From: Bilabrum cf. latius
Lineage: Eukaryota
Direction of reading: 5' to 3'
Assembly (NCBI GenBank): GCA_965178125.1
Contig: OZ237736.1
Coordinates: forward strand, 1,550,001 to 1,614,000
DNA length: 64,000 bases
Shown: positions 2,641 to 64,000 of the stretch, piece by piece
Layout: every line of letters begins with the position of its first letter
Numbering within the stretch: position 1 is the first letter of the stretch
Program-made: the position numbers and the translations under genes
The notes under the pieces: model-generated
Databases searched by the model: none
Seen by the model: the letters and a program-made list of their open reading frames with translations, nothing else
Told to the model about the DNA's origin: nothing

Positions 2641-4170
2641 TCACATGATATCTTCGGTCACGGGCTCCATTTCCTCCACCTTGCCCACACCGAACTCTCC
2701 CTCGTCCTCGTCCGCCTTGCTCTCCTCGCCCTCCTCCACCTCGGCCGAGCCCAGCCAGTCCACCATGGGCTGCGCCGCCTCCTTGGCCTCTGGCCCCGCG
2801 ATCCCTTCCTCGTCACCCCCCGCCCCACTCGAGGCCCCCGCGCTCCCGAACCACGCCATGAGCGGCTCCTCGTCCAGCGCCCCCGCGTCGTACAGGGCCT
2901 TGAGGCACAGCGGCAGCAGGGGCCTGAGGGGGGGCATGAGTCGGACCACCGTGTCCTCCAGCTGGTGCAGCAGGCACACCTGCTGACGAGTGGCCAGCCG
3001 GGCGCTGCCCGTGTCCAGCAGCGCCACAAGGATCTGCTGGTGCATTTCATCCCTGCACGCGGCCAGCAGCTCGGGCCCCTGCATGGCTGCCCTAAAGTAC
3101 AGAGCGGCCCGCTCGTGGGGGGGCAGCGCCGAGTTGGTCTGCGCCTGCACCACCGTGGTGACGGACCGGACCATATCTGCGTCTCCCGCCTCCTTGAGCG
3201 TGGTCCTGATCAGCAGGGCCGCCGAGTCCAGCGCGCCCTGGTCGTCCACCACCACCATGGCGCCAAGGCGGGACACCTCGCCCTCGTCCAGCTCCGCACC
3301 CGCATCCGCGGCCGTCTCGCCCAGCGCCGCTCCGACATCCAGGTCGTCTGCCGCGCCTCCTCCTCCGGCGATTGCCTTTCCCTCGTCCTCGCTCTCCCCG
3401 TCCGTGTCCGTGTCGGAGTCGGAGTCCTCCTTGCCCTCGTCCCGCTTGCTCTTCTTCGATTTCTTGCTCTTCTTCGATTTCTTGCTCTTCTTGCCCTTCT
3501 TGGCCTTCTTCTCGGCCTTGCGAGTCATCAACTCCTTGGCAATTTGGGTTGCTAGCCTATGGCTCATGTCTACCTTGGACTTGGCACCGCATGCCTTGCA
3601 CTTGAGGCCCAGCGTGCTGCCCTTGCCAGCCTTGTCCTTCTTGCTGAGAAACGTTGTTTCCGGGTTGCCGCACTTCCCGCACAAGACGAAGCGCTGAATA
3701 AAGTGATACACCTCGGACTGCGCATCCTTCTAGTCGTGCACACCGTTTACAATTGCCTTGCTGAGCTGCGCACAATGCATTCAAGACTACGCATGATATA
3801 GCAACAGCTCGATGGAAGAACATAGCGGGCAAACTTGGATATGTGTGCGCCACATATAAAAATGCATTAGTGAGTACCAACAGAGGGCAAACTGACCGAG
3901 GCATGCACAAAGCCCTGGCGAGAAACAGGACAGGTTCCCTTTCGAAGTTGCAGTCCTCACCTTGTCCTCAAATCGAGACTAAGCACCCCTCTCCACGCCA
4001 ATAAACTTGGTCAAATGCAAAGGCTCTCTCTTGATTGCCTCCGCTACGTCAACCATGTTCACCATGACCGTCTTAATACCATTCCCGCTACCCTCTACCT
4101 TCGTGACGATCGCAGGCATCTTGTACCGGTATGCAGGGTCATCCGACCCATTTACGTTAACCAAAGCCAT
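2641..4170 (-). CDS. EIF5: Eukaryotic translation initiation factor 5; one intron (~3766-3960); in-frame TAG at 3979 and 3730
   Basis: Motifs [43 protein letters not shown] and CKACG, plus an acidic W2-type C-terminus ([18 protein letters not shown]). Ends at TGA. Confidence 0.95.
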
Positions 4171-4351
4171 GACTCTAGTGCTTTTGTGATTAAATTCGGC
4201 CAGACTATGCAACTCTATTCAAAGCTCAGTGAGAACGAAGCTTCGAAAAATTCTTTGGTCAAATATACATACTATGCTCAAAAATACACCGTATAATTAC
4301 CACTTCTGCACTTTAATGTTTTTCGTTTAACACTGCTTACACGGCTCCAAT

Positions 4352-9300: not shown

Positions 9301-10308
9301 ACGAGCGGCAAGATGTCGGGACAGGCTTTAGCAGCCACGGATGCGGACGTGGCCGCCTGCTCCCTTGTGCCCTGGTGGCCCAGGCTACGGGAAGTGGCTC
9401 GGTTGATCGCGGGGCGCGCCGGCGAGGACTACGCCAAGGCAGCCAAGGCCGTGAAGGCTGCTCTGCTGCGGGGGCGCGTGGCAGCCCCCGCTGCCGCTGT
9501 CCTGGTGCTCGGTGCAGGGGGGGGCGGCGCTGACGAGGCCCTGTCCGGCCCCCGCCTGATGCAGGCCGCCAGCCAGCGGGTCACTGCGGCTGCCATCCGA
9601 GGGCTGGTGCTGCCGGGGCCAGCATAGGAACCGGATCTCGCACCGGGTACCTCTTGCGTCGGGGAGGGCTCCGCTGCTGCACCCGTGGGGGCGGGCACCG
9701 AGGAGCGGAAGGAGGACTCTGGAGCGGCGGGAGAGGAGGGGGGCGCGGGAGTGGGAGCCGCGGGAACCGTGGCCGGGTGGAGCAAGGAGGCGCTGGCTCG
9801 TGCCAGGGAACAAGCCATCCGGGAGATGCGCGAGGAGGAGGAGAAGAGTGGGCGGGGCGGTGGCGGTGGCGGTGCCTTGGTGCCCTCGCATGGCGGTGGT
9901 GAGGTGGCAATGTCCATGCCTGTCGCTGCGGGGGAGGGCAAGCAGGACGCAGAGGAAGTACCCGGCAGTGGTGTCCCGCTGTTGCCCGGCAGCACGCTCC
10001 CCGTGTCGAGCGGGGCGGTGAAGCCCGTGTCTCGTCTCCTGTAGGGCGACTTTCAGGTGTCGAGCTGGTCGCACCACGTGCAGCCAGCGGCACTGCCCTC
10101 GATCCAAGGAGATGGGTTGGGGGAATAGGGGGAGGAGGGGGCTTCCCATGGGGTCGAGGAGGGCCATGCGGGGGGAACAGGGGCGGGGGCTCTGGGCGCT
10201 GGGGCCGAGCCAGGGGTAGCAGGTGACTCGGAGACGGTGGGCGTGCTCTCGCGCGAGGCCATCCTGGCGCAGATCAGGGGCGGGCTGGGGGGGATGTCAC
10301 CGCCTTAA
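6321..10308 (+). CDS. DNAAF1/ODA7/LRRC50-like LRR dynein assembly factor with long low-complexity extensions; introns 6442-6553 and 6622-6720; five in-frame TAGs
   Basis: MPKMT, PELNDKMYLHY, YTALRALWLNHNGI, LRRs and an LRR cap (LSGN...YRKTLL...LDNRP). ORF pieces join across TAG at 7711, 8854, 9625, 10042 and 10126; first non-TAG stop is TAA 10306-10308. Start uncertain (6168/6321/6411). Confidence 0.75.
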
Positions 10309-10442
10309 AGTAGGTGAGCACTCCAGCCATCTACGAGTGTGGGACCACACCAAGCCACGGCCCGGACCCGCGGAAAGCGCTTGCGCTTCCGGTTTCGGCG
10401 ACTTTTCTGCAGAAGTACAAGACATTTTTCCACATTGCAATA

Positions 10443-12720
10443 ATGGCGTCCCCACGGATGGTTCAAAGCGTACAGCTGTCAATATAGCTAAAGGGGGTCG
10501 CTTCCCTCGATTTTTTGTCCAAATCGGACGTTTTTTGCGTATGTTATGTCGGATCCAACCGCAGCGGGCCCTGGGCAGAAATTGGACGGACTGAGACAAT
10601 TTGGAACGATAACAACCCAACTTTTAAGGAAGTAAGATAATTATTGTTATATGCTAAGATTTTGCTTGGCCGTATGCTTGATCGCTGCCAGTGCCTGTTG
10701 ACTGTGGTGACCAGCAAGTCTAGCTGCTGCGAATTCGCAGGTAATTAAGACAGAGTACCATTTTGAAAGGACCCAATGGATCCGAATTGAAGCCTACGAC
10801 AACGATGATGCTGCCTCTACAAGGTTGGCAGACCATGATTACGTTGGGGAGATTGTGCTCATGCTATCGTAGATCATGTCGTCCGGACTCGTCTTCAAGA
10901 CCCATTTGCACCCAAAGTCGATGGGCCACCGCGGGCATGCGCCGCCCGCGATCGCAGTAGCCAACACGCCAAAGTCTCACGCGCTGGCGAGGCAGCCCAT
11001 CATGATTGTCAGCGCCGCCGCCGTCAAGAACGGCGGCCGGGACTTGATCGACTTCGAGGCCGAGGCCGTTGGCGTCTCCGGTGGCTGCGGCGGAGGCGAA
11101 TGCACCCTCCTGCTTCAGCGCAAGTCCACCACTGGCGCAGTGGTCACCACGCACAAGGTCCCCTCGGTGCCCATCGTGGCAGGCAGCGCCAAGTTCCGCC
11201 GGCAGAAGGTCAGGCTGGGCACGCTTGCTCTGGGTGATCAGAACATGACGATCCAGGCGTCCGTGCAGGTGGACGGATGCGGGGGCCTCGGGGAGGCGGG
11301 GCGGGTGGAGTTCACCGCCGCGAAATGGGCCGAGCTTGGGGCCACTGGGGAGCCAGGGGGTCGCGCCGCCAAGGTCAAGACGGTGAAGGGGGGCGCGGGC
11401 AGCAGCACGCCGTCCTCATGCACCCTGACCCTGCACAAGTGGACCCTCACTGAATGCCCCCCTCTGATCAATTACCTGGGGGGAGGCCTCGACATCAACC
11501 TGGTGGTCGCTGTGGATTTCACCGCCAGCAACGGGCCGCCGTCAAACTCGAGCTCCCTGCACTACATCGGGGGCGCGGGGGGGAACAACCAGTACCTCGA
11601 AGCAATGAGCACCATCGGGACTATCGTGCAGGAGTACGGGATCAGTGACGTGCCCGCGTACGGGTTTGGGGCGCAGCTGCCCGGGCAAGGTGAGGCGAAC
11701 CACTGCTTCCCTCTGACCCTGGACCCCAGGCAGCCCACCGTAAGGGGGCTGGACGGTGTGAGACATGCATACCAGAACGCGGTGCGGTCGGTACAGCTGT
11801 GGGGACCGACCAATTTTGCGCCCATCATCAACCGCGTGGCGGAGATCGCCAGCCAGCGGGAGGCAGGCATGCTTGCGGGCGGTCCTCTCGCGTTCGAGGT
11901 GCTCCTCATCCTGACCGACGGCGTCATCACGGACTTGCCCGACACGATTTCAGCAATCATCCGAGCGTCCAAGCTGCCCATGGCCATCATCATCGTGGGG
12001 GTTGGAGGCGCAGACTTTGAGGCCATGGACTACCTGGATGCGGACGATGGCATGCTCAAGGACATGTACGGGAACGAGGCGGCCAGAGACATCGTGCAGT
12101 TCGTGCCAATGCGGCAGTACCTGGGGAGAGACAGGTGGGCTCTCGCGGCTGACACGCTCAAGGAGCTCCCCGACCAGATCGTTGACTACTTTGTCATGAA
12201 AAAGATTCCGCCCAGGCCTGTGCCGGAGCCCCACGGTGCTGGTGGAGCGGCGGCAGGAGGAGCCGGCTCGTATCCCGGTGCCGGTGCGGGGGGCGATGCT
12301 CCTGGGTACCCTGGTGGGTCAGCGGGTGGTGGGGCAGGTGGGCCAGGCCTCGGTGCGCCAATCCCAGCCATGGCGTAGAGCCTAGTATCTGCGGTCGGGC
12401 ACAGCGGGCCCGCCGGTGGAAGCTCGCAATACCCGACAGGCGGGGCGGCAGCTGCAGGGCCGGGATACCCAGGTGGCAACGGCGGAGGATACCCCGGTGC
12501 CGGGCCTGGGTATCCCGGAGGTGCAGGTGTGGGGGCTGGGCCAGGGTACCCTGGAACAGTCGGTCCACAAGGAGTTTAGCTGGAGATGGGTGCAACCAAG
12601 GCCGGGGTAGGTCCTGGGGGCAGTTCGCTGCCGTACCCCACTGGAGGTGCCAGTGGGGAGGCTGGCGCGCCCCGGACCGGTGCAGCTCCAGGGAGCGGCT
12701 CGGGTGGAATAAGCCTGTGA
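10443..12720 (+). CDS. Copine (C2 domains plus vWA) with Gly/Pro/Tyr-rich tail; intron 10632-10740; four in-frame TAGs
   Basis: SKSDVFCV, WAEIGRTETI, YHFERTQ, LS*IMSS, VAVDFTASNG, PAYGFGA, WGPTNFAPII, ILTDGVITD and RDIVQFVP. TAG at 10485, 10870, 12376 and 12577; ends at TGA. Confidence 0.93.
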
Positions 12721-12848
12721 CTGAAAAATAAATAGACAATCCAGGGGTTGGCATCCTACGATCACCCGGATCTGATTGGCATTCTCCATACTACACCACT
12801 AGATGTTTTTGACCTACGGCGTCAAACTAGTGTGTAATCCACTGTGGA

Positions 12849-15800
12849 TTACTGGCGCTAGCAGACATGCCAGACTTCATGCCCCACGCTGCACACGAAC
12901 CCAGGTTCATCGGCACCGGGCTGCACCCCAATCACACCTAAGCTGACAGCAGCAAAACTAGTCGGCGACTTCTCCAACGTCAAGTCAACGTCGTGCCCAG
13001 AAGGCACGCCATCGCCAGAATTGCCATTCTCATGGCGGCAAAGCACCTCATCATTCTAACCGTCCGGTACCATTGACCAGCTCCACAGTCGGTGCGCACC
13101 GCTGCGGCGCACACCTCGAGGCTTGCGGCCCGAGCTGCGAGGGCTGTCGTGATTTCCTCCCAGTGCATTCGCTAGATCCGCAGGCGTGCAGAGGCCTGGC
13201 GGCCCCAGAAGCGCATCTGCGTGTCTCTCTGATGCCACTGCAGCCGAGCTGCCCATATCTCCAGCAACTCGGTGGGCTGCCTCTAGCGCAAGTTGCAGCC
13301 CCTCGAACTAGTCTAGCTTAAGTGCCCCATCCTCAAATAGGCTTGCCGTATCCACAGGACGATAGCCCAGAGCCGCTCTCGCCACAGCAAAGGACGGGTC
13401 AGCCAACGGCTCGCCAGGGTTCGTCGCGTCCGTCGCCTCGCTGCCCGACCGGCGCCCATCCATGATCAGTGATTGCAGCCGGCCTCCAGGCTCACGAGCT
13501 ATAGGTGGGGAGCCTCCCGAAGCATGACCTCGGTCATCCGATCGATGCTTCTCCAGAGAATCGCCGTAGATCTCGCGCAAGTAGTCTCTCTCAAAGCTCC
13601 CGCTCTCCTGGTTGCCGTCGAACGCGGCACCGCCCTCGACACCATGATGGCTGCCTTGGCAAGCAGGGAACACTGGACCCACCTCGTCGAAATCAATACC
13701 CTGTCGATGCACGACTGCGCGTCGCCACTTGCCACGGAGTCCCGCAGCATCCAGCGCTAACACCGCGCAATCAGAGAAGTGTCCGCTTGCGTGTTCCAGT
13801 GCCGCCCGAGCCGCGTGTAGGGCACCGGCCGCCAAGGCTGCACCGGCAGCGCATGCCACCCCTCCAGTCGCTCCTGGGCCCCCGCCAACCGCCAGCATGG
13901 GAGCCAATACCTGAGATATCTGTTCGACGACCTGCCTGGCGCGCTTACCGCCGCTTAGGCTTGTGTGCAGGTGCATGGGAAGGTGCGCTGCTGCCCTGTT
14001 CGAGCTCTGGTCGCTGAAGGGCCAGGAGGCCAGCGGAGAGGCCGCCCTGCTGTACGGCCACGTGGGCGAAGGCCCATATTGCAACGAGCTTGCACCGGCT
14101 CGCGGTGACTAAGGCACATACGTTGATTGGTCAGATCGCGCTCGTGCAGCAGCGAGGGCCAGGGCCGCAGCTGCCACCCCGTGCACCTGGGCGTGTACGA
14201 GGCCGGCGAATGGATGTTGCCCAACCGTCGATTGATCCCCAGCGGTATCGGCCTGCATGGGTGCCACACCAGCAGCTTGCAACAAGCAGGGGTCGGCACG
14301 GGCATCAGGAGGAGTAGACAGCCTCTTCGCGCGCACTCTGACACACAGCGGGCCGACAGCACTCCGGTGACCCCGAGAATCACCGGCACGATTTGATCGC
14401 TGCTACGTTGCCGTTTGTACTGGCTCTAGGCAGGTCTCAAGGAGCTCGACGGCGCCGCCGTTGCCCGACTGCGCAGCTATTGGGCATGTCTCTGCCCTGG
14501 CCTGCCTCAGCGCGCCTTTCCACACGTCTCGCGCGGCCTCTTCAACGCTATCGGTCGTTGCTGCATCGCTAGGTTTAGGCAGCTCGCTACCGTAAAGGAA
14601 TAGCCAGAGCGTCGAATCTTCAGGAGTTTTCGGTGGCGAAGACATGCTGCCGTCGATTGCAGCCCCGGTATGCCTTCGCTTGGAGGCGCGCACGAGATGG
14701 CTCCAATACGCAACGCTGCTATCCTTTTCATGTTTGAGCGCAGTCTACCATTGGCTTGGCTCGTCGTTCCAGCTTCCAGCACGAGCCTGCAGCAGCACAG
14801 CCGCTCGAGCAGCGCTTGTATCCGACCATTTGTGCTTCACAGCACCCGCTATCGAGGAGCTGTGGTGTCCGGCTGGCATGCTGCGATCTTTGGAAGCCGC
14901 TATCGAGGAGCTCTGGTGTCCGGCTGGCATGCTGCGATCTGTGGAAGCCGCTATCGAGGAGCTGTGGTGTACGGCTTGCATGCTGCTCGAGGAGCTGTGG
15001 TGTCCGGCTGGCATGCTGCGATCTGTGGAAGCCGCTATCGAGGAGCTCTGGTGTCCGGCTGGCATGCTGCGATCTGTGGAAGCCGCTATCGAGGAGCTGT
15101 GGTGTCCGGCTGGCATGCTGCGATCTGTGGAAGCCGCTATCGAGGAGCTCTGGTGTCCGGCTGGCATGCTGCGATCTGTGAAAGCCGCTATCGAGGAGCT
15201 CTGGTGTCCGGCTGGCATGCTGCGATCTGTGGAAGCCGCTATCGAGGAGCTCTGGTGTCCGGCTGGCATGCTGCGATCTGTGGAAGCCGCTATCGAGGAG
15301 CTGTGGTGTCCGGCTGGCATGCTGCGATCTGTGGAAGCCGCTATCGAGGAGCTCTGGTGTCCGGCTGGCATGCTGCGATCTGTGGAAGCCGCAACGTCGC
15401 GATGCACCCCGCCCTCGATGGCATTTCGCATGCGCTCAGCCCAGCCAGAGAGCAGAGTCTTGTACACATCAAGATGCTGGGAAGCCTGGATCTGCGCACC
15501 CACGGGCCCCGCTGTAGCCATTCGAGCAGCCAGCATGCGTTGGCTCCCGGCCAGCCCGGTCCTGCCCTAGAGCAGCACCAGCGAATCAACCGCGTCTCGG
15601 AATGCATCGTCTTCTGGGACTATCTCGCGCTCTGAGGCTAGACCAAGCACCGAGTGCATCATGCGAAGCGCGGCCGAGTCCTCTTTAAACTGGGCTACCG
15701 ATTCGTAGGCAGCCTGGTCCAAGGCCACGGCTGTCACTGCTGCAGCTTGCAGCAACTGCTCCTGCAGCTCCCCGTGTGCGTCCAAGCCGTCTCCACGCGG

Positions 15801-40707: not shown

Positions 40708-40877
40708 TGGGTTTGTGTCATTTTCTGGGAGAATACATTTGATTCCGAATATTTTCACAGATGAACACAAACGAACTTTCGCTACTAGCTCCGACCCGTT
40801 CGCGCCATGTGGCGCGGATCTAGTTATAGTGTTGACTAGAGCTCATGGCAAGCTCTGCAGCGCCTTCTGCTCCTAGT

Positions 40878-43800
40878 ATGGCATCACCACCATTTCCACG
40901 GTCATAGTTTGTTTTATCTGCTGTAGCATAGACTCCGGATGCTAGCGCTGGGTACAAGGAAGACTCGCCGCTGGGCTCCGTGCGAAAGCACACTCGCCAC
41001 TAGAAGAACATGCTCTTGGTTAAGAAGAGCTTGGACTTTTTCGAGTAGCATGTACCTTGTTAGCTGCCGGCGGACATGAAACGAGAGGAATATAAGAGCG
41101 TGATGAGTTCCTTGTCGGATGGCAGGTTCTTGCTGGAAGCCACCGAATACACGGCATCGGTCTGCTACACTAGCTTTCGCCCTGGCGCGAAGAAAATCAT
41201 GGAAGGAGACACATTCAATTGGTAAGCACGACTGCTCTTGAAGCTGATTGGTGTTCCTGTGCTCGTTGTGAAGCAGATTAGACAGATGCCGGGCTCCTCT
41301 ACGGCTGCTTCATAAACCAAAAATCTCCGAACGTCTCCGCAGGATGGACACCGTGGCGTGCGACAAGCTGAAAAGTAACGTCAGAACCGTAACTAGTTCA
41401 GACTTTAGAAGGGCGGGCCACGATGGTCTGCACAAGCTCGCCACCTACCTGGAATTTCTCCACAGGTGCGCCGTGGCTCAGTAGGCACCACCGCCGCCCA
41501 AGCCCGTGACGGGCGTGGGCAGCAGCACCAAGAAACCTCGTGCCTCGCGAATCCCAGGAGAAGAGGACACAGGCAGGGCCTCCGCCGCGTGCACGCCCTC
41601 CCACTCCAACTCCCGGGGACCCCCCCTGACGGGAGATGGGTACATGGGCCCCTTGCAGCACCACGGGGGCCCCGCGAGAGCGCCCCGGTCATTGCGCAAG
41701 GCCGGCCCTCCCTCCGCGGGAGCCAGCACTGTGGCCTCGGAGCGGTCGTGCGCCGGCCATCTGAGCTCACAGCGCCTCGCAGGCCGCATGATCCAGATGC
41801 GTGCCAGGGGCACGCCGGGGAGGATGCGGGCGGGGGCTGCGGCGGCCGAGGCGGCGGCACAGGCGCAGCGAGAGCTCGACAATGCTACTCGTCGCGCTGA
41901 GACGCTCGAGGCTGAGATGCGCTGCCTGAAGGGCGACAACGAGTCCCTCAAGCAGCAGATTCAGCGCCAGGTGGACAGCATGGCAGAGCTGAGGGGGCGG
42001 TACGAGGCGCAGTCAGAGGGGCAGGGAGCGCTGCACCAGGACTTCGCCAAGCAGGTGGAGGAGAAGGAGACGGCCCGTCAGGAGGCGAGGCAGAGGGCCC
42101 TCGAGGCGGAGGAACAGGCGGCCAAGCTGGAGACCGAGCTGGAGGACACGAGGCGCAAGCTGCACCGCAACTCGACGCGCAAGGCCGAGGCCGAGGCCGA
42201 GCTGGAGGAGGCCCAGTCGGAGGCGGAGCGGGCGCGGGCCGAGGCCAAGGACGCGCAGGAGGCCCTGAGGGTGCTGGAGACCACCATGGCGGAGGACGCC
42301 GAGAGGAGGTCCAGGAGGGAGGAGGAGGACGCCAAGCAGCTGGCCAGGCTCAGGGCGGGGGCGCAGGCGCAGTCCAAGGCGGCCCGCAGCACGGTGGAGC
42401 GCTGCCGCTCCGCGCACTCTGCGATCAAAGAGGCCGCCCAGGGCATGAGGGAGCTGGCGCAGGTGGTCAGGGCCGAGACGGCCTCTGCCTCCTCGGAGCT
42501 GGGCCGCCTGGGCCAGGCGCTGGCCGAGGCCGTGGGCCGGGCGCAGGAAGGGGCCAGGGAGGCGGACCGGCGGTTCATGCGCGAGTCCAGGGAGCGGCGA
42601 AGGGCCTTCAACCAGCTGCAGGAGCTGAAGGGGAACATCAGGGTGTTCTGCAGAGTGCGGCCCATGCTGCCGCGCGAGCAGGACAAGGGCGAGAGCGCTG
42701 TGGTGGCGACCCCCTCTGACTTCGAGATGGTCGTGGGGGCGGGGGCGGGAGCGGGGGCCGAGGACGGGGAGGAGGCCAAGGAAGGGGGCGCTGCGTCCTC
42801 TGGATCCGGGTCATCTGACCCTGCGGCAGCCACGCCATCCAAGAAGAGGACTCGCCGTCTGGGCGCGGGGGCAAGCGGGGCCGAGGGGCAGCTGCAGAAG
42901 TACGAGTTCGACCGGGTGTTCGGGCCGCAGTCGACGCAGCAGGAGGTGTACGACGAGATCAGCCCCATGGTCATGTCGGCTCTGGACGGCTTCCACGCGT
43001 GCATCTTCGCGTACGGGCAGACGGGCTCGGGCAAGACGTACACGATGCAAGGGGGCCGCGAGGGCGAGGAGCACGGCGTGTACCTCCGTTCCCTGGAGCA
43101 GCTCTTCGACGAGAGGGCCGCGCGCACGGACTCGCACGACTACGAGCTATCCGTGTCCATGGTGGAGATCTACAACGAGACGGTGAGGGACCTGCTGCAC
43201 GCGGAGTCTGCCAGGGCCGCGGCGGCGGTGGCCTCCAACGGGCCGGGGGCGCCGGGGGCGGGGAGCGCCGGTGTGGTGGACATCAAGCAGGGCCCCCACG
43301 GAGTGTACATGCCCGGGTGCACCTCGGTGCCCGTGGGATCCGCCGCTGACGTGGCGCGGGTCATGGCCCGAGGGGAGGCCTCCCGCTCGGTGGGATCGAC
43401 CGACTCGAACGCGCACTCCAGCCGCTCACACATGCTCCTGCTGGTGGACGTGACCGGCACCAGCCGGGTCAACGGTGCCATGTCCAGGGGGCGCCTCGTG
43501 CTCGTGGATCTGGCCGGCTCGGAGCGGGTGCGGAAGAGCGGGGCAGTGGGGCAGCGCATGCTGGAGGCCTAGAACATCAACCGGAGCCTGAGCGCGCTGG
43601 GAGACGTCATCGCAGCCCTGACGCACAAGCAGAAGCACATCCCGTTCCGCAACAGCAAGCTGACCTACCTGCTGCAGGACTCGCTGGGCAAGGACAACAA
43701 GGCCCTCATGATCGTCCAGGTGTCCCCCATTGCGGGGTCACAGGGGGAGACCACTTGCTCCCTCAAGTTCGCTGCCAGGGTGCGCAAGGTGGAGCAGGGC

Positions 43801-48002: not shown

Positions 48003-49195
48003 TGTTCGCCTGCGGGTAAAAAACTCAGCAGAGACTTGCCAGTGATGCTGATAAGTGTATTTTCGCCGAACAGCGTACGCTGTGTCGCTTGTCGGTCTCG
48101 AGGGTACAAGCCGAAAGTGATGAGGCACTCGAACTTTGGCGGTGCCTGCCCGCGCGCTGGTCGCAAATGCTGACGAAGCAGCAGGAGCGAGCCGCGCACT
48201 ACCGCGGACACAACGGCGAGCTAGGACAAACACAATCATACTCGTTATCATGGAAGCTTTGGCAGTTTCAACCATGTTGAAGGCCCACACTGAGAATTCG
48301 AAACACCTCGAAACCGAATCGGAACACACATGTCACTGTCTCTTGATACCAGCTGGAAAGATAGAAGCCCAGGCAGATGTGAAAATCATCACAATTATTA
48401 TGCAAGACACAAGGCCGGTACGGCACAAGAGAGTTTGGCCGTCTCGAATCGCCCGAACCGGAGATGCTCCTTTGATTGCAACACGCAAAAGCCACCCGGA
48501 AATTCCAATGCAAGCCATTTACAAGATCTGAATCCAAGATTTGGTATTAAGAAAACAATTTAATTCAATCTGGCGCATTTTAACCCCCACAGACAGCTAG
48601 CACTAGCATGGAAAACCATGGGGTACAGCGAGAGGGTCCGCACCACAGCCGAATCACAAAAATGCAGCAAGCATTCCGCAATTCAATGCAAAAATCGCTG
48701 CGGACCATCTTCATAAATACCCTCATATTTGAATTAGCCACATCTCTCACCAGTTATTCGTGTGTGTGTGGAGGTTGTAGAGGGAAGGGTCACGGCCGAA
48801 TGTTTGGCGCCGACCGAAGTCCATCATGATGTGACGAGTGCGGTTGGGCCGAGCCGTGCATGCACCGCGAGCTACAGTCCCGGGCATGGTGCCCTCATGG
48901 GCCAAAAGATCGCTACATAGGGACGCTCTCTCGCGAGCTGCATGCCGATGCATGCCCTGATGGGATGGCAGCCTGTCGAACGGTATGTGCGTGTTGCATT
49001 CGTCCGGTAATCGTCCCTGTCAGCAGGTGCGGAATTTCGGGTACGCTGTGTCAGGAGGTGCGAAAGGCGACACAGCACAGCATGCATCCCGGTCTTTATG
49101 ATCATAGTAGTCTGGCACGGCTCAAAAATTCTCTCAAACGGTATCCCGTCCGACCGGCCTGCATCCTCCCGCGCGTTGATTCAGCCCAAGCCCCG

Positions 49196-49486
49196 CTGCT
49201 GCACCCACTGCTGCACCCACTGCTGCACCCACTGGCAAGAGAACTGCTGCACCCACTGCTGCACCCACTGGCAAGAGAACTGCTGCACCCACTGCTGCAC
49301 CCACTGGCAAGAGAACTGCTGCACCCACTGCTGCACCCACTGGCAAGAGAACTGCTGCACCCACTGCTGCACCCACTGCTGCACCCACTGGCAAGAGAAC
49401 TGCTGCACCCACTGCTGCACCCACTGGCAAGAGAACTGCTGCACCCACTGCTGCACCCACTGGCAAGAGAACTGCTGCACCCACTG
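49196..49486. repeat. Minisatellite of two 12-bp units (A=ctgctgcaccca, B=ctggcaagagaa), mostly in AAB 36-bp order
   Basis: Perfect copies arranged AAAB AAB AAB AAB AAAB AAB AAB A, immediately downstream of the TAA of the GH130-like gene. Confidence 0.95.
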
Positions 49487-49487
49487 A

Positions 49488-50663
49488 TTAGCCTGCAGTC
49501 ACAGCCACCAGTGCAGTCCCCACGACCGCATCACTGCCCCCGAAGAATACCCGGAACACGTCTGCCTCCCCCGTCGCAAGCCTGCCAGTGATGGCCCCGC
49601 TCGAGCCCCCCCGGCCCCGGCCCGACACCCGCCGACCAAGGACCTCTCGAACCGCGGCCGTCTCTTGTGGCGTGGCGGGCGCCGCGGCCTCTAGAAACAC
49701 CACGTCAGGGACGTTACACAGCTGGGGGGCTCGCCCCGATTGCCAGTTCAGGTCAGGCGAGAGCATCGGGGCATCGGGCGCGGCTCGCTCGGCGCACGCA
49801 AAAGGGTCCTTTGTGGCATTCACCACGCACCAGGAGGCGTGATACGCCAGGCTTTTATTAGCAGAGTTGTGAAAGAACATCAGATTTCCGTCGGACAGCC
49901 GAAGGGGCGGAGGGCCGGCCTCCACCAGCCCCGCGTCGAATCCTCCGGGCCTGGGGGCCAAAAGCACGCGGTCCGTCCAGCGCCACCCCGTCAGGCCCTC
50001 CCCTGGGCGAGATACGGCCACGCGCACGATGCCTGCGCCCCAGTACAGCAGGTGCGTCCCGTTGCCGAACGGGTCGACAACGATGGCCCCCGATTTCGAC
50101 CCGGATCGGACAGATTCATTAAAGACCGCTCCGTGCCGTTCCCACACGCCGCTGGAGGGCGCCTCCGATGATGCGAGGCACAAGAAAACCTCTGTACGGT
50201 TCGGTGTTCCGCCAACGCACGTGTACATCATGTAGTATCGCCCAGAGCTGGGGTCCACCGCAACGCGGGGGTCCTCTGTACCCATGCTCTCCTCCGAAAT
50301 CCCCAGCCCTGGCCCAAACACCAGCGAGCCAGTGCTTTGAATGGGCTCCAGTGCGACCTGGCTCTACCCAGTGCGATGTATGGAGCTGAAAGCCAGCTTG
50401 GAAGGGGACTGCCGGAAGTCGCACTTTGCGCAGTAGCCTGCCTCCAGCGCGCAATCCTGCACTCGAACGAGCAGGCCCTCTTTTTGACCATTTGCCTTAT
50501 TTGCGGGAATGTATGAAGGATTGAAGGCTGCCCAGTACGCAGATGTGTTGCCAAAATGTGACAAAAGGGGCCGGTTTGGTAGATCGACAACTTCCACGCG
50601 GTAGCCAGCCGCACGGACGCGTTGAATGATGACTACAAGCAGCACAATGCACGTGATCTACAT
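49488..50663 (-). CDS. Secreted GH130-like (five-bladed beta-propeller) glycosidase/phosphorylase; TAG as codon 2 and at 50364
   Basis: AFNPS, GTEDPRV, YYMMYT, KSGAI, LVEAGPPP, NVPDVVFLEA and FFGGSDAVVGTA. ATG TAG start gives signal peptide M*ITCIVLLVVII. Ends at TAA. Confidence 0.8.
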
Positions 50664-50914
50664 GATAAATTACAATTTGGTTGCGGTAGATCGGCCCTAA
50701 CGTATGGCCGTGCGGTGCAAAGTTTTTTCCAAGGATTCAACCAGCGGATTGACTGACGATATGGATGGGCGCAATAGTACAGGGCGTGGAAGCCCGCAAA
50801 ACGAGGGTGGAGAACACACTGTAACAAAAATTGTGTGTACTGCAACCCACGGGCTGCACGTTGCCTCAAGACGGGCAATCATGGCGCACAATCGATGGCG
50901 AGCCCTGGTCGTGC

Positions 50915-53900
50915 TCACTGGCCCTCCTTCGGGGTGGTGCCTTCCTCCCGCACCCGCTGCACGTGGTGCCCAGCTTCCCGCAGGCTGCTCTCGATGTCTT
51001 GGTCCTGAGACCCTCGCCCCGCGACCCCCGGGTCCAGCCGTGGAGAACCGCCCTGCTGCGACTGCGAGTTGGACTGCGAGTAGGTGCCCCGCAGCATCTG
51101 GCCAGCGCTGCCCGCCGTGTCCCCGCGCCCGCGAGCCGACAGCGGCATCGCCCCCGCAGGCAGCCCGGACCCCGACCTGTCCAGCGCGGGCCTGGACCTG
51201 TTCCTGCTCACCGAGGTGAAGGAGGTCATGGCCCCCAACACAGAGTGGCCGCCGTCGGACCGCTAGCCCCTGGAGGAGAGCAACGACCCGCCGCTGGCAC
51301 CCAGTCGACCCAGGGCGCGGCGGGGGTCGCCGTACGGCGATCGAGGACTACCTTCATCTGCCCCTTCACGCCCGATGCCCCCCACTTCCTCCTCTTGCTT
51401 CTGCTTGTGCCTCTGCTGGCTCAGCCGGCCGCTCCTGGACCCTCTCCCAGACCCTGTCCCTGTCCCTGTCCCAGCCGTCAAATTGCCCGCGCTCTGCTCT
51501 CGGGAAGACACCCTGCTGCCACCTGACGCCTCATGCTCGCGCGCCGCCCGGTCCTCGGCATGCGCGCGAGACCCGCTGCGGCCATCCTGGCTGTGGCTGT
51601 GGCTCGCGCTCGAGTCCGCCCCTCGCGTGGTGGGCGGGGCAGCGGAGGGCCGGCGGGTCTTGCCTCGGCCGGAACGGCGGCTACCCCTCCTGTCTCTGCT
51701 TCGGCTGCTGTCGCTCAGAGCAGACGCCCGGCTCTGGCTCCGTCGCTACGAGGCCCTGTCCTCCGTGCTGGACCGACGGGAATCAGCCCCACTGCTAGCC
51801 CTCCCGTCGCCGCCCTCACCCGCAGCCTCCAAGGCCTGCTGAACGTGTGAGGACGCGAACTCGAAGCGTTTCTTGCTCGGGACTGACCTCGCGCCCGCCA
51901 TAGACTTGGGGTGGGCTCGATCCCCCTGATGCCGCGAGCGGGCAGGCAGCCCAGTCTTGGCGTGTACCAGCCGCCGGCTGCTGCCGCCAGACGCACCGGC
52001 TCTGTTCCCCAGCGCCCTCTGGGAGACGGAGGGACCTTGACCCGCGCCAGCACCCGCCGCCAGGTTCAGAGATCGGCTGGACTGCGGCCGGCGCTTCGCA
52101 AAGAGATCTCTCAGCCGCCCCAACTCTACCCGCTCCCCTGCACCACTGCCGCCGGCGTCACCGCGGTCGGTGTCCCGACGGTCCTTCGATGAAGTTGCCC
52201 TCACATGGCGCTGCAGCCGCCCGAGGCTGCGGGCGGATTCACGCTGAGCAGGGGGCTGGGGACCCCGCCTACCGTGGGCCCGGTGTCGCTACTAGGAGGC
52301 AGAGGAGGAGGGCGGCGGCGGGGCAGTCCCAGAGCTGCGGCGGTGCTCAATCACACCTACCCCTCCTCGCCCTCTTCCACATCCGTCCGCTCGCGCGCCC
52401 TAGTCCTCTCGGTCATCGTAGTACGCGTCTCTGTCGTCATAAGCGACTTGCCCGCGCCCGCGCCCGGATCGTCTGCCAGAGTCAGCCCGCCGGCAATCGT
52501 AGCTACCCGCCCCCGAGGTGCCCCCGATCGTCAGCAAGTCATCGTCGTCCTCTTCCTCCTCTTCAAGCTCCCGCTCGAGCTGGTCCTCCTCCTCCTCCCG
52601 CTGCCGCACCGACGCCTCGATCCGCCGGAGGGCCCGCCGGAGGGACCTCATCTCGTCCTGCTGCTGCGCGATCCCGCGAAGCACGGTGGCCAGCGCATCT
52701 GCAGGCACCCCTATGATCGGAGCAGAACCCGCGCTGGATAACCCGAGCTGCCCCACCGAGGCACCGAGTCCCTGCCGTGCCGCCGTCCGTCCGCCGTGCA
52801 TCGCCTACACCTGCGCTGCCATCTCAGCCGCCCCGCTGCTACTGCGGCGGGCCGCTTGCTGCACCGCCTGGTCAGCCTCCGACAAGGAGGTTGCCCGTAC
52901 CTGCCCCTCTGCGCCCCCACTGCTCTTGCGCTGGGAGGAGGCCCCTCCGCTTGAGGCCACCGACCCTGACCCTGCCATCTCCAGGTGCCGTGCCACGCTG
53001 GGCATGAGGTGTTCCCTCGGCGTGGAAGGGGAGGCTCCCATGGGCCGACGCCCGCCACTGCCCACAGATGAAGAGTTGTCTGTGGCCAGCGACCGCAGGC
53101 CCCGACCCTTCTTGTGCCTCTCCCTGGAGCCCGGGCCCGTGTCAGCGTCCTCGTCCTTGTCTCCGAGGTGGTGCTGCGGCGGGGTGCTGGCAGCGCTGGA
53201 AGATTTGGTGGACTTGCGGCCGTCCTGCGCGGCGCTGTGGCGGTCGCTTGTGTCCGCGCCGGCCTGGGATCGAGACCCGGTGGAAGGTCCCCCCACCGAG
53301 GACGATGTCGCGACCGAGTGCGAGTGCGAGTGCGACACCCCGGACTGGGGGCCCACGGAGCGCGGGTGGGAGGCGGCGCGGGACCTGGTGTGCAGCTCCT
53401 TGCCCGGCCTGGACTGCGGGTCCTGCTCTTGTCTTGCCGCTGCGTCCGAGATGCGCACGGACTTGCGCGCCGTGCTGCTACCACTGCGGCTAGTGTGCAT
53501 GGACCCCTCCCCTCCTGTGGCCGAGGACCTGCTCCCATGCTTGCTGAGCCCGCCTGCCGTGTGGCGGTCTCCGTCCTTGTCCTCCTCCTCGTCCTCTTCA
53601 TCCTCCTCCTCCTCTGCATGGGCCTCCTCAGACACGAGCGGCAGCACCTCACCTCCCCGGCCAGACGCCTCCCCTGAGGTTGCTGATCCAACCGAGCTCA
53701 CCCGCCCCAGTCGCGGACTGCTCTGACCCGAGGCACCCACGAGTCCGCCGCCCTGCAGCGACCCGTGTTTCGGCGAGCCCCCATCCTCGCCGGCACCGGC
53801 CCCCAGGTCCCACGGCCGCCCGAGCCCGCCCCCTTCGGTGTTGGACCGACGCAGCACCATCATGCCCCCAGGGCCTGACCCACCCTATTCTGCAGTGGGG

Positions 53901-56900
53901 TGGAACCCCTCGGGACCCCCCTCTTCCATTACCTGCGCCTCGGGGGGCGGCTGCAGCTGCATGCCAGGCACCCGCACCGAGGACCCCTCTGGACTACCTG
54001 GGGGTGCCACCTGCTGCGCAAGCGGGGATCCGATGGGCAGATGACTCATGCTGTGCGCCCGTCGGGGCCGCACCCCCCCTGGTGAGAGACTAAGCGCCTC
54101 CTGCTGCCTGCGGGCCTGGAACCCATAGGCCTGTCTCCGCATCTGCTGCTGCAGCTTCATGCGGGTCAGGTGCGCCATCCCGAACACGCGCGTGGGGGAG
54201 GCCCACCCACCTCCCTTCGAGCCTTCAGTCCCGGTCCCGGTCCCGGTCCCGGTCCTCCCTGAACCGGTGCCAGCAGCCCCATCCCCGGCGGCACCCTCTG
54301 AGGCAGCTCCGGACACGGCGCGCTGCTCCCGGACCTGGATGGACAGACCGCCCGCACCTGCCACACCCACCGCATCCCTGTCTCCGTGGCTCGAGTCGCT
54401 CTCCCCAGACGAACCGCCCATCATCTGCGCCTCATCGCCCGCGCTCCTGGACCGGCGCTGCCCTCGCCGGACGTTCTGCGATCCAGCAAACTTGCTGAGC
54501 ATGGCAGCGGCCCTCGCCTTTGCCTTGGCCTCGGAGCCCGCTTCCGACACGCTCCCCGAGCCCGCCCTATCTCTTGTTCCCTGGGCAACGTCACCGTTAC
54601 TAGTCGAGTCGCTCTGCAGCTGCGCCGTTGCCTTTGCGGCGACCATGGCCTTCTTCACTGCGGGTGCAGGTAGTGCAAAGGAGTGGCTGCGGGACCGCTG
54701 CCTCGTGTCAGCCGGCAGGTCAGGCACCACGTCCCACGGAGAGGGAGAAGGGGAGGGGGAGCTTGCCGCGGGACTGGGGTCCCCAGAGCCCTCCTTCCGC
54801 TTGCCGGGGCTCCCGCCCGCGTCGGACCCCGTGGGGGCCTCGCCGGTTTCTGTCCTGCGGCGGCTGCTGCTGCGATCACCCACAGTTGAAGCCGTGCGGT
54901 CACCGGTGCCCACGCGATCGGTGTAGGACCCCGCTCTGCCTCGACCCCGGCCCGCGCCCCTGACTGCGCTCACGTTGCCCGAGGAGGCACTCAGCGCGCC
55001 AAACACGCTACCAGGGGGCGGCCCCGCCGAGCTGAGCGCCTTGGGCAGGTCTCCGGCGGTGTCTGCGTCATTCTCGCCGGTGCCGCCCGCCCCGCCGCTG
55101 CCGACCGACGTGCGCTCCCTGAGTGAGTTCTGATCCGATTTTTGGCTCGTGTTGGAGCTGCCGCCCGTCCTGCGACTCCTTGACCCACGGCTCCTGGATC
55201 CCCCTCCGCGGCTCGACCTGCGACTACCCCTGACCGACCTGCGCGACTTGGCCTCCTCCTCCACTGCAGCCGCTGCCTCGGCGGCCTGCGCCTCGGCAAG
55301 CAATATGTCGCGCTCCTCGTCCCGCCCCAGCTGGCCCAGCATGATGGCCCGCTGCCGCACGGATGTCTCGTCACTCCCGGCAGACACACCCGAGCGCCGG
55401 GAGTCCGCGGTCGTGAGTCTGCCAGAGTTACCGAGCGCACCGCTGGCCGGGGTACCGTACGGTGAGTTGCCCTCGGTGGGGCTGAGCCGAGGCTTGCCTG
55501 TACTAGCCCCGCCCTTCTTTCGTTCCTTACCTCCCTTAGGATCTCCATGCTTCTCATTGTGCCTGTGCGCGTGCCTGGCCTGGCCCCCTGCTGACTGGCC
55601 CATGCTGCCCGCACCGGTGGGCCCGCTGCCGCTGCGGCCGTCCTCCACAGACACTTCTCCCGCAGAAGAGCGGGTGGGGTGCTTGCCCGCCAGCTCGTCC
55701 AGCGTGTCCGCCAGAGTGGCGAGGGCACCTGCCACGGCACCCTCGCCCTTGTCGTCCCCCTCCCCGGCGCTGCTGTGCGTCGGGGACTGGGCAGTGCGCG
55801 CATGTCCGGCAATTCTCTCTCCGTGAGGCTCGTGAGGCTCGTCTTCGTCACTAAGCCGCAGAGAAGACTAGATCGTGCCCAGGCTGCGCTGGCCCAGGGT
55901 GTCGCGCCGCTGCTTCCCTCCCACTCGCCGCACGCCGCCGCGCCTGCTGCTGCCTCCGCTGTGCCCTCGATTCCTGCCGCGCCGGGATCGGCGACTGCCG
56001 CTGCCCGATGCTGTGGATCCCTCCGCGCGCCTGCGGCGGCTCCTTCCCTCTCCCCCGGTGATGCTGCTCGAGTCATCCGTCTCAGACCCGTGCCCGGGGG
56101 CCTCGGGCACCGCCTGCAGCAGCCGCAAGCCAGATCCAGTCCCCCGGCTCATCTGCATGGAGGGCGGCCGCCTCATGTTGAGCATGCCAGCGGGAGGGTC
56201 CCGGTGCCCCTCTTGCCGCTGTTGTTGGGGCTGCTCACCGTGCCCCCGGTCTCGACTGCGGCCCCCTGCGAAACTGTTGCGTTTCACCCGCAGCATATCC
56301 TGGGTCATCTCGTCCCTGGTGCCTCGATCCGCGCTCAGGCGGGGCCTCCGCTTCCCCACCACGCTGCGAGCCGAGGTGCTCTTGCGCAACATCGCCCGCC
56401 GCGCCCTCCTGCGCCTCTCTGAAAGACCGCCCACCCGATCCCCAGCGCCACTGGATTCCCCGGCGCTGCCGCGTGGCGAGGGGCCCCGCCGCCCGCCAAA
56501 CCCGCGCCGCGACCGAGCCCGTGCGCCCTTACCGATACCCGGTGCCCTCGACACTCCCTCCTCCCCTCGTTTGCCATCGCTGTCCGAGGCGTGGTAGCTG
56601 TACACGCTCTCGTCCCCATGCAGCCCCTCCTCCTCTTCTTCAACTCCCTCGTCCACTTCCATGACGCTAGCCATCGGCCCGGTCCCGCCGTATCCCGCCC
56701 CGACCTCGCCCTCACCATCGTCCTCGTAGTAGTCCTCGCCTTCGCTTCCCATCCCGTCGCCTGGGCCTCTGCTGTGGTACCCATCCCCGCCGTCACCTTC
56801 CCCCTGGCCCTCCGCACCCCCTTGCCCCAGCATCTGGTTCTCGATGGCGGCGGCGTTACGCTCCCACTGCCGCTGCTGCTGCCGCTGGGTGATCTCGTGG

Positions 56901-59900
56901 TATGCCTGGTTGAAGTTTGAACCCAGGATGGAGATGGGCAGTGCCAGCAGCAGCACACCGCCGAGCACGGTCAGCGTGCCCGCCAGCCGGCCCCACGTCG
57001 TCGTTGGGACCACGTCGCCGTACCCAGCAGTGGTGGCGCTGATGACAACGTACCAGAAGCTCTGCGGGATGCTAGTGAAGGGCGTGGGCTCCTCCTCTGT
57101 CCGGAGTCCATTCGGCCTGACGAAGCGCCCCTGCTGCTCGTCCCATGTCCCTTGCTCGGCGAAGAACACGAGAGACCCGAACACCACCACGGCCAGCAGC
57201 ACGAAGAAAAGTGTCAGCAGGAGAGCGTCCACTGAGCGGGACAGCGCGTTCCCGATCATCCGGAGTCCGTTGGAGCGCCTGCCCAGCTTGAAGATCCGGA
57301 GAACCCTGCCGAGGCGCAGCACGCGCAGGATCGCTAGTGAGCTCGCGTTCGCGTTGCCATCCGCACCTGCGCCCAGCGCTGCCAGCGCCAGCTCCACGTA
57401 GAACGGCAGGATGGCCAGCAGGTCCACGACCTCCATCGGGCCGAGGGCGAAGCGCCGCATATCTGCGAGAGCACGGCCCAGGCTGCTGCAGGCCGCGCGC
57501 CGGTGGCAGCAGCAGATGCAGCTGAACCAGGGCGCCCGCTTTGGGTGCTTGGCCGCGGGCCCGTACGGCACCTCCACGCGACGGAGCACCTCCGACTCTG
57601 GACCATCCAGACCGTTAGCGTCCCCGCCAAAAGCACCGTGCTACTGGACTTCTTCTTCGTCTCCTTCGAACGATTCCCATGGTGGGAGGATGCCGCAGGT
57701 CCCGGCACAGCACCAGCATCCGCCTTCCGCTTCGTCGCCCGCTACTGCCACCGACCACAGGCGGTGCACGGCCTCGTCCCGCCGCAGCTCCGCGCGAGCC
57801 AGCCGCCTTGCTGCCGAGTAGGCTCGCTGCAGCAGCGGGTCTGGCTGTGGCGGCAGCGCCACCATCGTCTCCCCCCTGGCGTGGCCCCCCGCCGCCCCTA
57901 GATCGCCCCCGTCCTGGTCCTTGCCCTCGCCCGAGTCGCCTGCGATGTCGATGCGCAGCTGTGACGAGGACTGTGCGATGCGGCCGGAGCCCTGCTGCTT
58001 CCATTGATCGAGAGCGGTACGCCGCTGCTCCCTGCGATCACCCGCGAAGTCCATGGCAGAAATCCTCGCGGCTGGGCCCGCTGCATCCGCGGCGATCTTT
58101 GCACTCTCTGCCGCGAGGAAGAGCGCACCACGGGCCCGCAGCATGTGGTCGGCGGCGCGGCATCGCCGAGTCCACAGTCTCCTAGAACTGATGCACGGCA
58201 CTGCAACCTCTACCACGGCAGCGTCACTGCCCTTGGGCGGTTCCTGTTCCTCTCCAGCTGCGTCCTTTGCGCTGCTTCTGTCGCTGTCAGCATCCGGGGA
58301 CTGCACATCCACGACCGCGATGTCTCCGCCGTGCATGGCCACGGGTGAGCTGGGGATCGACTGCGCAAGCAGAGGGTCCGGCGACGCACCCGAGTCCTCG
58401 TTGGTCTTGGGAGTGCCGCCGCCGGAAGGCTGCAAGCCAGAGGTAGGCGAGATCCTGCTGGCACGCCGCACCCTCACTCCCGTGTTCTTCTTTTCCATGG
58501 CCGTTCGCAGCGCGTCGCTCGTGCTAGTCCTCGTCCTGCGGATGCGGGTCGGGCTCGAGGAGGACAAGGCGTCCCAGCGCATCACCAACCGCCCTAGTCC
58601 GCTGGCGCCTCCCGTGCTGTTGCTCTCGCTATCACCACCGTGCAATACCTCTTGCTCGTCCTGAGGTGAGGTCAGGAACTGCATGAACGCCTCATCGTCG
58701 AGCTCAGAGCTGTCCTCGTCCTCCTCCAGCGCGTCCTCGAGCTCATCCTCCCAGCGAGCCGTCACCTGCTCCTGCCAGGGCTCTGGCCTGGCCCACGTGG
58801 TGACCAACCGCCCCATGTACTCGAACGTAAATAGAACCACACAGACAGCCTCTACCCACGCAAACACATCCACCCCGAGCCGCACTTGCTCCTCTAGCTC
58901 CTCTGCTCGTGCCACGTCCGGAAGGTTACCGATGCCAGCCTCGTTCCGAGCCAGCAGCAGGCCGGCCTCCTGAAACCTGCCCTGCTTGCCGAGTCGATAT
59001 GCAGGCCCACTCTCGATGCAGAAAGACACGACGCTCAATAGGATGGCAAGCATCACGACCATGCCAAAGAACTGACCAGAGGCGCTGTTCGGACTGCCCG
59101 ACAGCACCAGGTGAGCCGCGTAGCATCGACGCACGCACAAAGAGGGGTACGCAAACGGCGGGTACTCGCCGATGGGCTGCCCCGAGCCACCCGGCATTCC
59201 ACTGCCGAAGCTGCCATGCTCTTCGTCTGGTTTCAAGGAACCACCATCCCCGGGCCCGGTGGCAGTGCGATGGGACGACTTCCGTACATCGCTGTCTCCT
59301 CTTCCGCAGCACCCGCTGGCCTCGTCCTCGCCCTCCGTCGGCGGGAGCCAAGCCCTGCCAGCAGCCCGCACCACCGCGGACGGTGCCACGATGCAGCCAT
59401 CGTCCCCGATGGGAGGGGCCTCGTTCTGTGCCTGGTCGAGCCAGTCGGCTGCGCGCCCCACGAGCTCCGGGTCATCGGCCCCCGTGTCGTCGAGCTCGCG
59501 CTCCACTGTCTGCGCGTTGTGAAGGCTGCCTGCTGCCACGCTCATCCTTTGCAGCCATCGGCTCACATCTCCGCGAGCCTCCTGAATTGCATGCGCGGGA
59601 GGGCGAGGCAGCCGCAAGAAACCCACGTCGGGCTCGTCCTCGGGCCCAGGAGAAGGGGCCACTGGCGAAGGCTGCCCATCAGCGGCGGGCCCGACTTTGG
59701 CCGATGAATTCGCATGCGATGCGCCGAGGCCAAGCCGTTCTTGCGTGATGCGCAAAGACTGCTGCGGAGCCAACGAGGCTCGGGGCCTCGGCTTGGCTGG
59801 GAGGACCGGTGCCACGGATGGGGGCCTCAGGCCACCGCTCGTGCCGCGGTCCCCTCCACTGGCGGCCTTGGCGTCCCCGCCGCCCGTAGTGGTCGTGCCC

Positions 59901-62900: not shown

Positions 62901-64000
62901 CTCCGCACCCGCGGCGGAGTGGCCACTGCATCGAAGGTACGCCTGCGGCCAATAAACGCACCCCTTGCACCGGGAGGTCCGTCGGCATCGGAGGCTGACG
63001 TCGGCTCCGTCTCGGATCCGCCAGTGGCGAGCCCCCTGCCCATGTCCCTGTCGACCGGCAGGTCAACGGATCCGAATCGGCTCTTGCGGTTGCCCCTTGC
63101 GCCCCGGGTGGAGGGCATTCCGCCCATGCTGCCGCCGCCTATGCCGTGCGATGTGCTCGACCACCCGCGGCGACCGGCCGGGCCGCCCCACGGCCGCTGT
63201 CTGCTCTGCGGCTGTGGAGTCCTGGACTCGCCGGGCCCGTGCCTGACCGCACGACCTGCCCCCGCGCTGATAGACAGACCCCGCTGGTGTGGCGAGCCTG
63301 CGAAACCTGCGGGAGACGCCGCCAGCGGTGAGCTAAAAGCATCCGCGGGAGACGTCATGGCCGCGGCGGCACCCATGAGTCCGAAGGAGAGGCCCGGCAT
63401 GGGGCCACCCACGGGTGTGCTGGCCGCATGAATCCTGGGAGACGGCACTTTGGAAGGCACGCGGCGGTGCCTCCGACGACCAGACAGCGTGCTGCTGTGT
63501 CCTGCCACGCTCCCGGACCGATGACTCCTTGTGCCTGCGGGCGAACCCAACTCCATGGGGCCACCGCCCCCGCCCCCGCCATCGCCATCTCTGCCACCAG
63601 TGCCTCTGCCCCCACTCGCGGCGGTAGCAGCGTCTCGGGTGCCGACGATCACAGACCGGCTGCGGCTGCGGGTCGCAGATTGTGACGAGTGCGATGCTAC
63701 TCCTGTCGTCGAGGCCGCAGCACCTCCAGCGGCCCGCCTCCCGCCCTCCGCGAGCATCCTGCCCTGCGAGGACCTGCGGCGGCTGCCAGGGGCCCTGTGC
63801 GTAGGGGTGGCCTGAGAGCTGGCAGCCATGTGCGTGTTGGTGATGCTGCGGTTCGAGTCCCCGGATTCTAGGGCCCCCCGGCTGTCCTTGCGACCAAACC
63901 CCGCGGTGGAGGCGCCACCGGTCGGTGTGCGCTGCCCCCTGGTCAGCTGGATCTCGGAAGCCGGAGGCAGGGCAGAGTCGCACCCTGTGACCCGTGGCAC
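50915..64000 (-). CDS. Giant voltage-gated K+ channel (Kv-like, 6TM), >4360 aa, 5' end outside the window; 11 in-frame TAGs
   Basis: Ten ORF fragments share one frame and are separated only by TAG; TGA at 50917-50915. S1 FFGMVVMLAILLSVVSFCIES, S2 VEAVCVVLFTFEY, S3 VVDLLAILPFYVEL, S4 LRVLRLGRVLRIFKLGR and pore WYVVISATTAGYGDVVP. Confidence 0.88.

Follow-up and report, generated by a model that had tools for sequence, protein, structure and literature searches.

In-frame UAG as a probable glutamine codon, with UAA very probably kept as a stop, in a GC-rich nuclear locus of a eukaryote

As far as the portions of PMC5304391 and PMC11687900 drawn on here describe them, nuclear codes nearly always reassign UAA and UAG jointly, and the lineages that split the two codons are only a handful. 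In the same portions, UAG alone is reassigned in the fornicate Iotanema spirale (to glutamine), in the ciliate Protocruzia tuzeti and in some phyllopharyngean ciliates (to glutamine or leucine) (PMC5304391, PMC11687900), as well as, with UAA kept as a stop, in the rhizarian exLh, where UAG is leucine, and in the green alga Scotinosphaera, where it is serine (PMC11687900). The route given for UAG-only codes is the decoding of UAG by a CUA anticodon, which is blind to UAA (PMC5304391). The joint change is represented there by Amoeboaphelidium, in which both UAR codons are read as glutamine (PMC5304391).

The window analysed here, the whole of a 64-kb stretch of DNA, very probably follows a code in which UAG is glutamine, while UAA and UGA are stops (NCBI table 15 type). 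Similar to what the cited portions describe for Iotanema spirale, Protocruzia tuzeti and some phyllopharyngeans, UAG stands at conserved glutamine positions, UAA serves as a terminator and does not occur inside coding sequence, and UAG and UAA thus have separate meanings; the main stop differs, being TGA in the window (13 of 16 genes) compared to UAA in Iotanema, according to the same source (PMC5304391). With exLh and Scotinosphaera, the window shares a UAG reassigned alone and a UAA that still stops, but the amino acid is different, as glutamine fits three conserved sites. Compared to the fornicate and the ciliates, the window has 65% GC and very long intron-free open reading frames (ORFs), unlike a ciliate or a fornicate. 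Its genes include a DNAAF1-like flagellar gene and one for a RadA of bacterial type that is extended at the N-terminus. Regarding the codes in which both UAR codons are glutamine (Amoeboaphelidium protococcarum, ulvophycean green algae, hexamitid diplomonads, oxymonads and many ciliates), UAG as glutamine and UGA as the commonest stop are common to them and to the window; however, their UAA is glutamine inside genes, whereas the window has no TAA in 17,994 coding codons and has TAA at a conserved C-terminus. The window may also show signs of TAG close to gene ends and of TGA acting as a back-up behind TAA, which recall Condylostoma, Parduczia and Blastocrithidia, but the ambiguous codons of those organisms are frequent internally, and TAA in the window is never internal.

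The DNA of the window is nuclear and comes from a GC-rich, intron-poor eukaryote. According to Pfam and homology, the eukaryotic proteins that it encodes comprise a kinesin-14-like motor, copine, PP2C, eIF5, GMP reductase, GH92, GH130, an ion channel of voltage-gated type and LRR proteins, together with the bacterial-type RadA. Spliceosomal introns are present in the copine, eIF5 and GMP reductase genes, where they are short and AT-richer; their donors are GTAAG or GTGAG, and their acceptors resemble TTCGCAG. The giant ORFs are free of introns, and several ORFs, with lengths between 1,253 and over 4,361 codons, are uninterrupted. The coordinates of these and of the other features are collected in Table 1. 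The best database matches of RadA are all bacterial RadA, and the protein is probably targeted to an organelle. Named copine matches come from animals and Phytophthora, with 33-36% identity, and PP2C offers a weak lead, its nearest Atlas clusters being those of haptophytes and streptophytes.

Genes are tightly packed in places: the ATG of copine follows the TAA of the LRR gene at a distance of only 149 nt (10309-10457), and copine and the 1601-codon ORF, which converge, have their stops 128 nt apart (12721-12848). The N-terminus of the 1253-codon LRR ORF (6547-6800, plus strand; ...ESPELNDKMYLHYG / ...CKIESL...) may resemble that of the dynein assembly factor DNAAF1; if this is the identity of the ORF, the organism would build flagella.

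TAG is a sense codon in the window. When the three standard stops are applied, the longest ORFs have 923, 894 and 890 codons, and they reach 4361-4362, 2313-2314, 1728-1729, 1601-1602 and 1253-1254 codons when TAG is read through. With TAA and TGA as stops, Pfam families are found in 10 of the 16 long ORFs, including kinesin, copine, GH92, PP2C and the ion channel. None of the 16 needs TAG as a stop, although TAG does stand just ahead of the stop in two of them and at the homology boundary of a GH130 relative (see below). The amino acid is most likely glutamine, as read from the alignments of three in-frame TAG codons located in the kinesin motor, the first C2 domain of copine and eIF5 exon 1 (Table 1), where serine and leucine are absent from the aligned columns. 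In the case of copine, glutamine also occupies this position in a relative with 75% identity (P0047), with the same surrounding residues. Two other TAG sites fall at variable positions, facing a lysine in RadA and an alanine in eIF5 exon 2, and are uninformative.

The gene closed by the TAA at 49488-49490 is placed by its sequence in glycoside hydrolase family 130. Its ORF matches PF04041 (Glyco_hydro_130) with 42.9 bits, over a cut-off of 26 (E 4e-11), has 46 homologs at E<=1e-3, the best of them 61% identical, and aligns over its full length in a set of 24 sequences with 34 invariant columns. The C-termini of the 23 homologs in this alignment are short, extending no more than 10 residues past the last conserved strand (GTAxVxV) in 19 of them and no more than 14 in 22, with 38 residues as the longest tail; meanwhile, the protein from the window, whose final residues are FFGGSDAVVGTALVAVTAG, ends 3 residues past that strand. 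The initial annotation, which had the gene ending at TAA right after the terminal strand of the family, is thereby borne out by the alignment, and the TAA can be taken, on sequence grounds, as the true stop of the gene. It is the one gene in which UAA stands at a conserved C-terminus without a nearby stop, the next one being 117 codons further on.

That this TAA might be an artefact, whether an assembly error, a sign of a pseudogene or a codon that splicing takes out, is scarcely credible. Introns do occur in this genome, as seen for copine, eIF5 and GMP reductase, but no donor of GTRAG type lies immediately upstream of the TAA, and the family itself ends at this point. In addition, the gene is intact and 61% identical to its relative over 385 residues, to the very end. 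A separate contig from run X4 (12,370 nt) has no letter different from the window over 49460-61790, some 12.3 kb that include the TAA, so the codon is not an error specific to the window. Comparing runs X4-X7 with positions 49460-64000, the only variant was an uninformative G>A at 58510, in a single contig of low depth; the joints listed for these runs have sides of no more than 25 letters, in low-complexity DNA, and the listed X5 piece begins at 49544, leaving the TAA of the GH130-like gene uncovered.

If this TAA were read through, translation would enter SVGAAVLLPVGAAV... and the protein would gain a tail of 117 codons, three times the longest tail of the 23 homologs and mostly made of a 36-nt tandem repeat. 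The GC3 of the tail is 0.37, below the minimum (0.44) and the median (0.76) of 145 coding windows of equal length, although the repeated unit has 12 codons, so that the effective sample is small, about 12 codons, and the binomial P is 0.004. All six frames of the 36-nt repeat are open, and one of those on the minus strand (QWVQQFSC...) has a GC3 of 0.90.

The best GH130 homolog, the database protein P0001, is located on a metagenome locus (L001, 3037-4374) with 55% G+C, and was cut at TAGs, with its N-terminus missing. When TAG is translated as X, the gene of this locus and that of the window share 61% identity over 385 residues, in an alignment that runs across an in-frame TAG. As the TAG lies within conserved sequence, the relative shares its reassignment, which is thus found in two organisms or more. 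The last homologous residues are ...AVTS in the relative and ...AVTA in the window, which then continues with a glycine and the TAA; in the relative, the end of homology is followed by TAG (4285-4287), 28 unrelated codons and TGA. This TAG, only one codon off the position of the TAA in the window, is evidence in both directions: the former C-terminus lay here, but a tail beyond it is tolerated in the lineage, weakening the case for TAA as a stop.

Inside genes, TAA is missing. The coding set of 16 genes and 17,994 codons contains TAA 0, TAG 75, CAA 132 and CAG 670 times; the ORFs used have no internal TGA either. If TAA were a glutamine codon used relative to TAG in the CAA:CAG proportion, 14.8 would be expected (P(0)=3.8e-7), while the lowest NNA/NNG ratio (CTA/CTG, 0.11) gives 8.4 (P(0)=2.3e-4), in an overall range of 8.4-16. 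This count is partly circular, because the ORFs counted were themselves bounded by TAA; consequently, checks that ignore TAA-bounded ORFs were added, based on ORF lengths, two-sided coding scores and a Pfam scan of TGA-bounded ORFs.

When TAA is read through in place of TAG, the longest ORFs are unchanged (923, 894 and 890 codons), and reading through both codons extends the top ORFs by only 9-44 codons (2314 to 2343, 1602 to 1611 and 1254 to 1298). A codon model was applied to the 40 codons on each side of all 249 TAA of both strands, and none had a strong coding signal on both flanks; a strong upstream signal was seen only at 10306 and 49488, and the TAA at 12849 has a weak upstream coding potential, below the threshold. 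Two TAA with weak two-sided scores, 37337 and 41060 (both on the minus strand), were considered as coding and rejected, as they match no Pfam family, have translations unlike protein and lie between convergent or divergent genes. TGA-bounded ORFs of at least 100 aa holding an in-frame TAA numbered 104. Scanning 100 of them with TAA as X yielded no Pfam match spanning a TAA, and matches of any kind in two (GMP reductase and GH130); the other four are giant ORFs, with TAA at their extreme ends and outside the Pfam domains found. An earlier observation that no TAA lies inside a conserved domain is thus confirmed for the 100 ORFs scanned.

The TAA found beside real exons fall in introns or 5' leaders, such as the copine donor GTAAGA, the acceptor TAATTCGCAG and intron 1 of GMP reductase. 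TAA trinucleotides cluster in these introns and in intergenic DNA; kb 4-5, for example, contains 22 of them, whereas kb 42-46 is devoid of TAA. Candidates for TAA interrupting the copine, DNAAF1-like or GMP reductase genes were rejected, being intronic (GTAAG/GTGAG donors and TTCGCAG acceptors). A TGTAA polyadenylation-type motif was also looked for and showed no enrichment, with 18 matches compared to 20 expected.

These results bear on a code of table 6 type, in which both UAR codons would be glutamine and UGA the sole stop, TAA would be rare through GC bias, and the terminal TAA would be relics of former stops, read through to the next TGA. Such a code is by far the commoner variant in the portions of the literature cited above (PMC5304391, PMC11687900) and agrees with TGA as the stop of 13 of the 16 genes, with the TGA that follow two of the three TAA at 3 and 9 codons, and with the TAG of read-through type at the same GH130 boundary in the relative. 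It is nevertheless very unlikely, since 8.4-16 internal TAA would be expected from the 75 TAG and the NNA/NNG usage, and there are none; all three TAA lie within the last 3, 9 and 118 codons of TGA-bounded frames; no Pfam domain runs across a TAA; and the GH130-like protein would gain a 117-residue, non-conserved repeat tail with non-coding GC3. A rare or recent sense use of TAA may still occur.

Among the first stops of the 16 genes, TGA accounts for 13 and TAA for 3. The two TAA first stops that were initially annotated in genes beyond GH130, at 10306 and 12851, are both real, as is the accompanying caveat that a TGA stands 3 and 9 codons past these TAA (10315-10317 and 12822-12824), so that these two ends cannot discriminate between the codes. 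At the end of the 1601-codon ORF (12822-12860, minus strand), one frame reads TAG, two codons, TAA, eight codons and TGA. In the 13 genes that stop at TGA, a second TGA follows in frame 8 to 144 codons later (median 26), and a further TGA within 9 codons is found at 2 of 3 TAA ends compared to 1 of 13 TGA ends (one-sided Fisher P=0.07), a hint that TGA may serve as a safeguard behind TAA. The final five codons of the genes hold two TAG where 0.32 would be expected (P=0.04); these lie in two different genes, 3 and 4 codons ahead of the stop. Both P values come from tiny counts and are marginal and uncorrected for several looks.

The same gene ends could be explained by position-dependent or leaky stops of the Condylostoma or Blastocrithidia type, in which UAG, and possibly UAA, would be glutamine inside genes and terminate near the 3' end, with UGA as back-up. 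The excess of close TGA behind TAA, the two TAG just before stops and the TAG exactly at the end of GH130 homology in the relative would all suit this explanation, and, if it were true, this last TAG would be a working stop, as would the clusters TAG-TAA-TGA and TAG-TGA with which two genes of the window end. An ambiguous code would then exist in a GC-rich genome that belongs to neither ciliates nor trypanosomatids. It is considered unlikely, however, because the counts are tiny and their P values marginal, and no TAA is found inside genes, whereas known ambiguous codes use such a codon commonly within genes. In addition, relic TAG stops with a close back-up explain the pattern equally well: the gene-end TAG fit relics of TAG stops whose survival is owed to a near back-up stop.

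Table 1. Positions in the window of the genes, stop codons, in-frame TAG codons, introns and repeats discussed in the text.
Feature	Position	Strand	Remarks
eIF5 intron	about 3781-3960	-	short, AT-richer
eIF5 exon 1	3961-4170	-	3' end ...GACAAG/GTGAGG
In-frame TAG, eIF5 exon 1	3979..3981	-	Q of GAQ in eIF5 chains, 3/3 alignments shown
GMP reductase	4352-6100	+	five pieces, 4 introns
TAA first stop, 1253-codon LRR (DNAAF1-like) ORF	10306..10308	+	TGA 10315-10317 is the third codon after
Copine start ATG	10458	+	next gene after the LRR ORF
Copine intron	10635-10740	+	...PTFKE/GTAAGA...TTCGCAG/VIKTEY
In-frame TAG, copine first C2 domain	10870..10872	+	Q in 12/19 homologs
TAA first stop, 1601-codon ORF (no known family)	12849..12851	-	TAG 12858-12860 3 codons upstream; TGA 12822-12824 9 codons downstream
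51-nt tandem repeat, about 11 copies	14846-15392		inside the 1601-codon ORF (no known family); 17-residue repeat SSIAASTDRSMPAGHQS
TAG four codons before TGA stop, 2313-codon ORF	24391-24405 (TAG 24391-24393)	+	
RadA/Sms, bacterial-type	38176-40842	-	~100-residue N-terminal extension, large Gly/Glu-rich insertions
In-frame TAG, kinesin motor	43570..43572	+	conserved Gln of ...EAQ.IN(K/R)SL...; Q in KIFC3 and Kar3, 2/2 alignments shown
Tail gained on read-through of GH130-like TAA	49134..49487	-	117 codons; ends at TGA 49134-49136
36-nt tandem repeat, 7.4 copies	49207-49486		directly past the GH130-like stop; most of the 117-codon tail
Terminating TAA of GH130-like gene	49488..49490	-	'tta' on the plus strand
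GH130-like CDS	49491..50663	-	391 codons from Met
In-frame TAG, GH130-like gene	50658-50660 (codon 2), 50364-50366 (codon 100)	-	
ORF of at least 4361 codons, beyond window edge	50918-64000	-	ion-transport domain in the middle, long low-complexity flanks, 11 in-frame TAG

Taken with the three conserved glutamine sites, the lack of TAA in 17,994 codons and the end of the GH130-like gene, the proposal of the initial annotation that TAG was reassigned and TAA retained as a stop is well supported. Its caution that this window cannot strictly exclude UAA as glutamine also stands, in view of the TGA close behind two of the TAA and of a window in which a tRNA scan returned no gene and a Pfam search of the ORFs no eRF1 gene; on the locus of the metagenomic relative, the only tRNA gene is tRNA-Ser(GCU). 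In mechanistic terms, the preferred code would most likely depend on a tRNA-Gln with the anticodon CUA, pairing with UAG and not with UAA, and on an eRF1 that would have lost the recognition of UAG and kept that of UAA and UGA. UGA is the preferred terminator in the window and UAA a minor one.

Among the full-text papers searched, there is no report of a GC-rich non-ciliate with UAG alone as glutamine. The code of the window is, with high probability, a further case of the rare UAG-only type that is already known. For annotation, this means that gene callers need TAG as glutamine and TAA and TGA as stops here, as database predictions made with the standard code cut proteins at every TAG, for example P0001. 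Each split between UAA and UAG bears on how a code change starts, whether by a CUA-anticodon tRNA or by a change in eRF1, and a further GC-rich non-ciliate case, shared with the metagenomic relative, would be an independent instance. As TAA is scarce here under mutation pressure, codon capture versus loss may be examined in this lineage.
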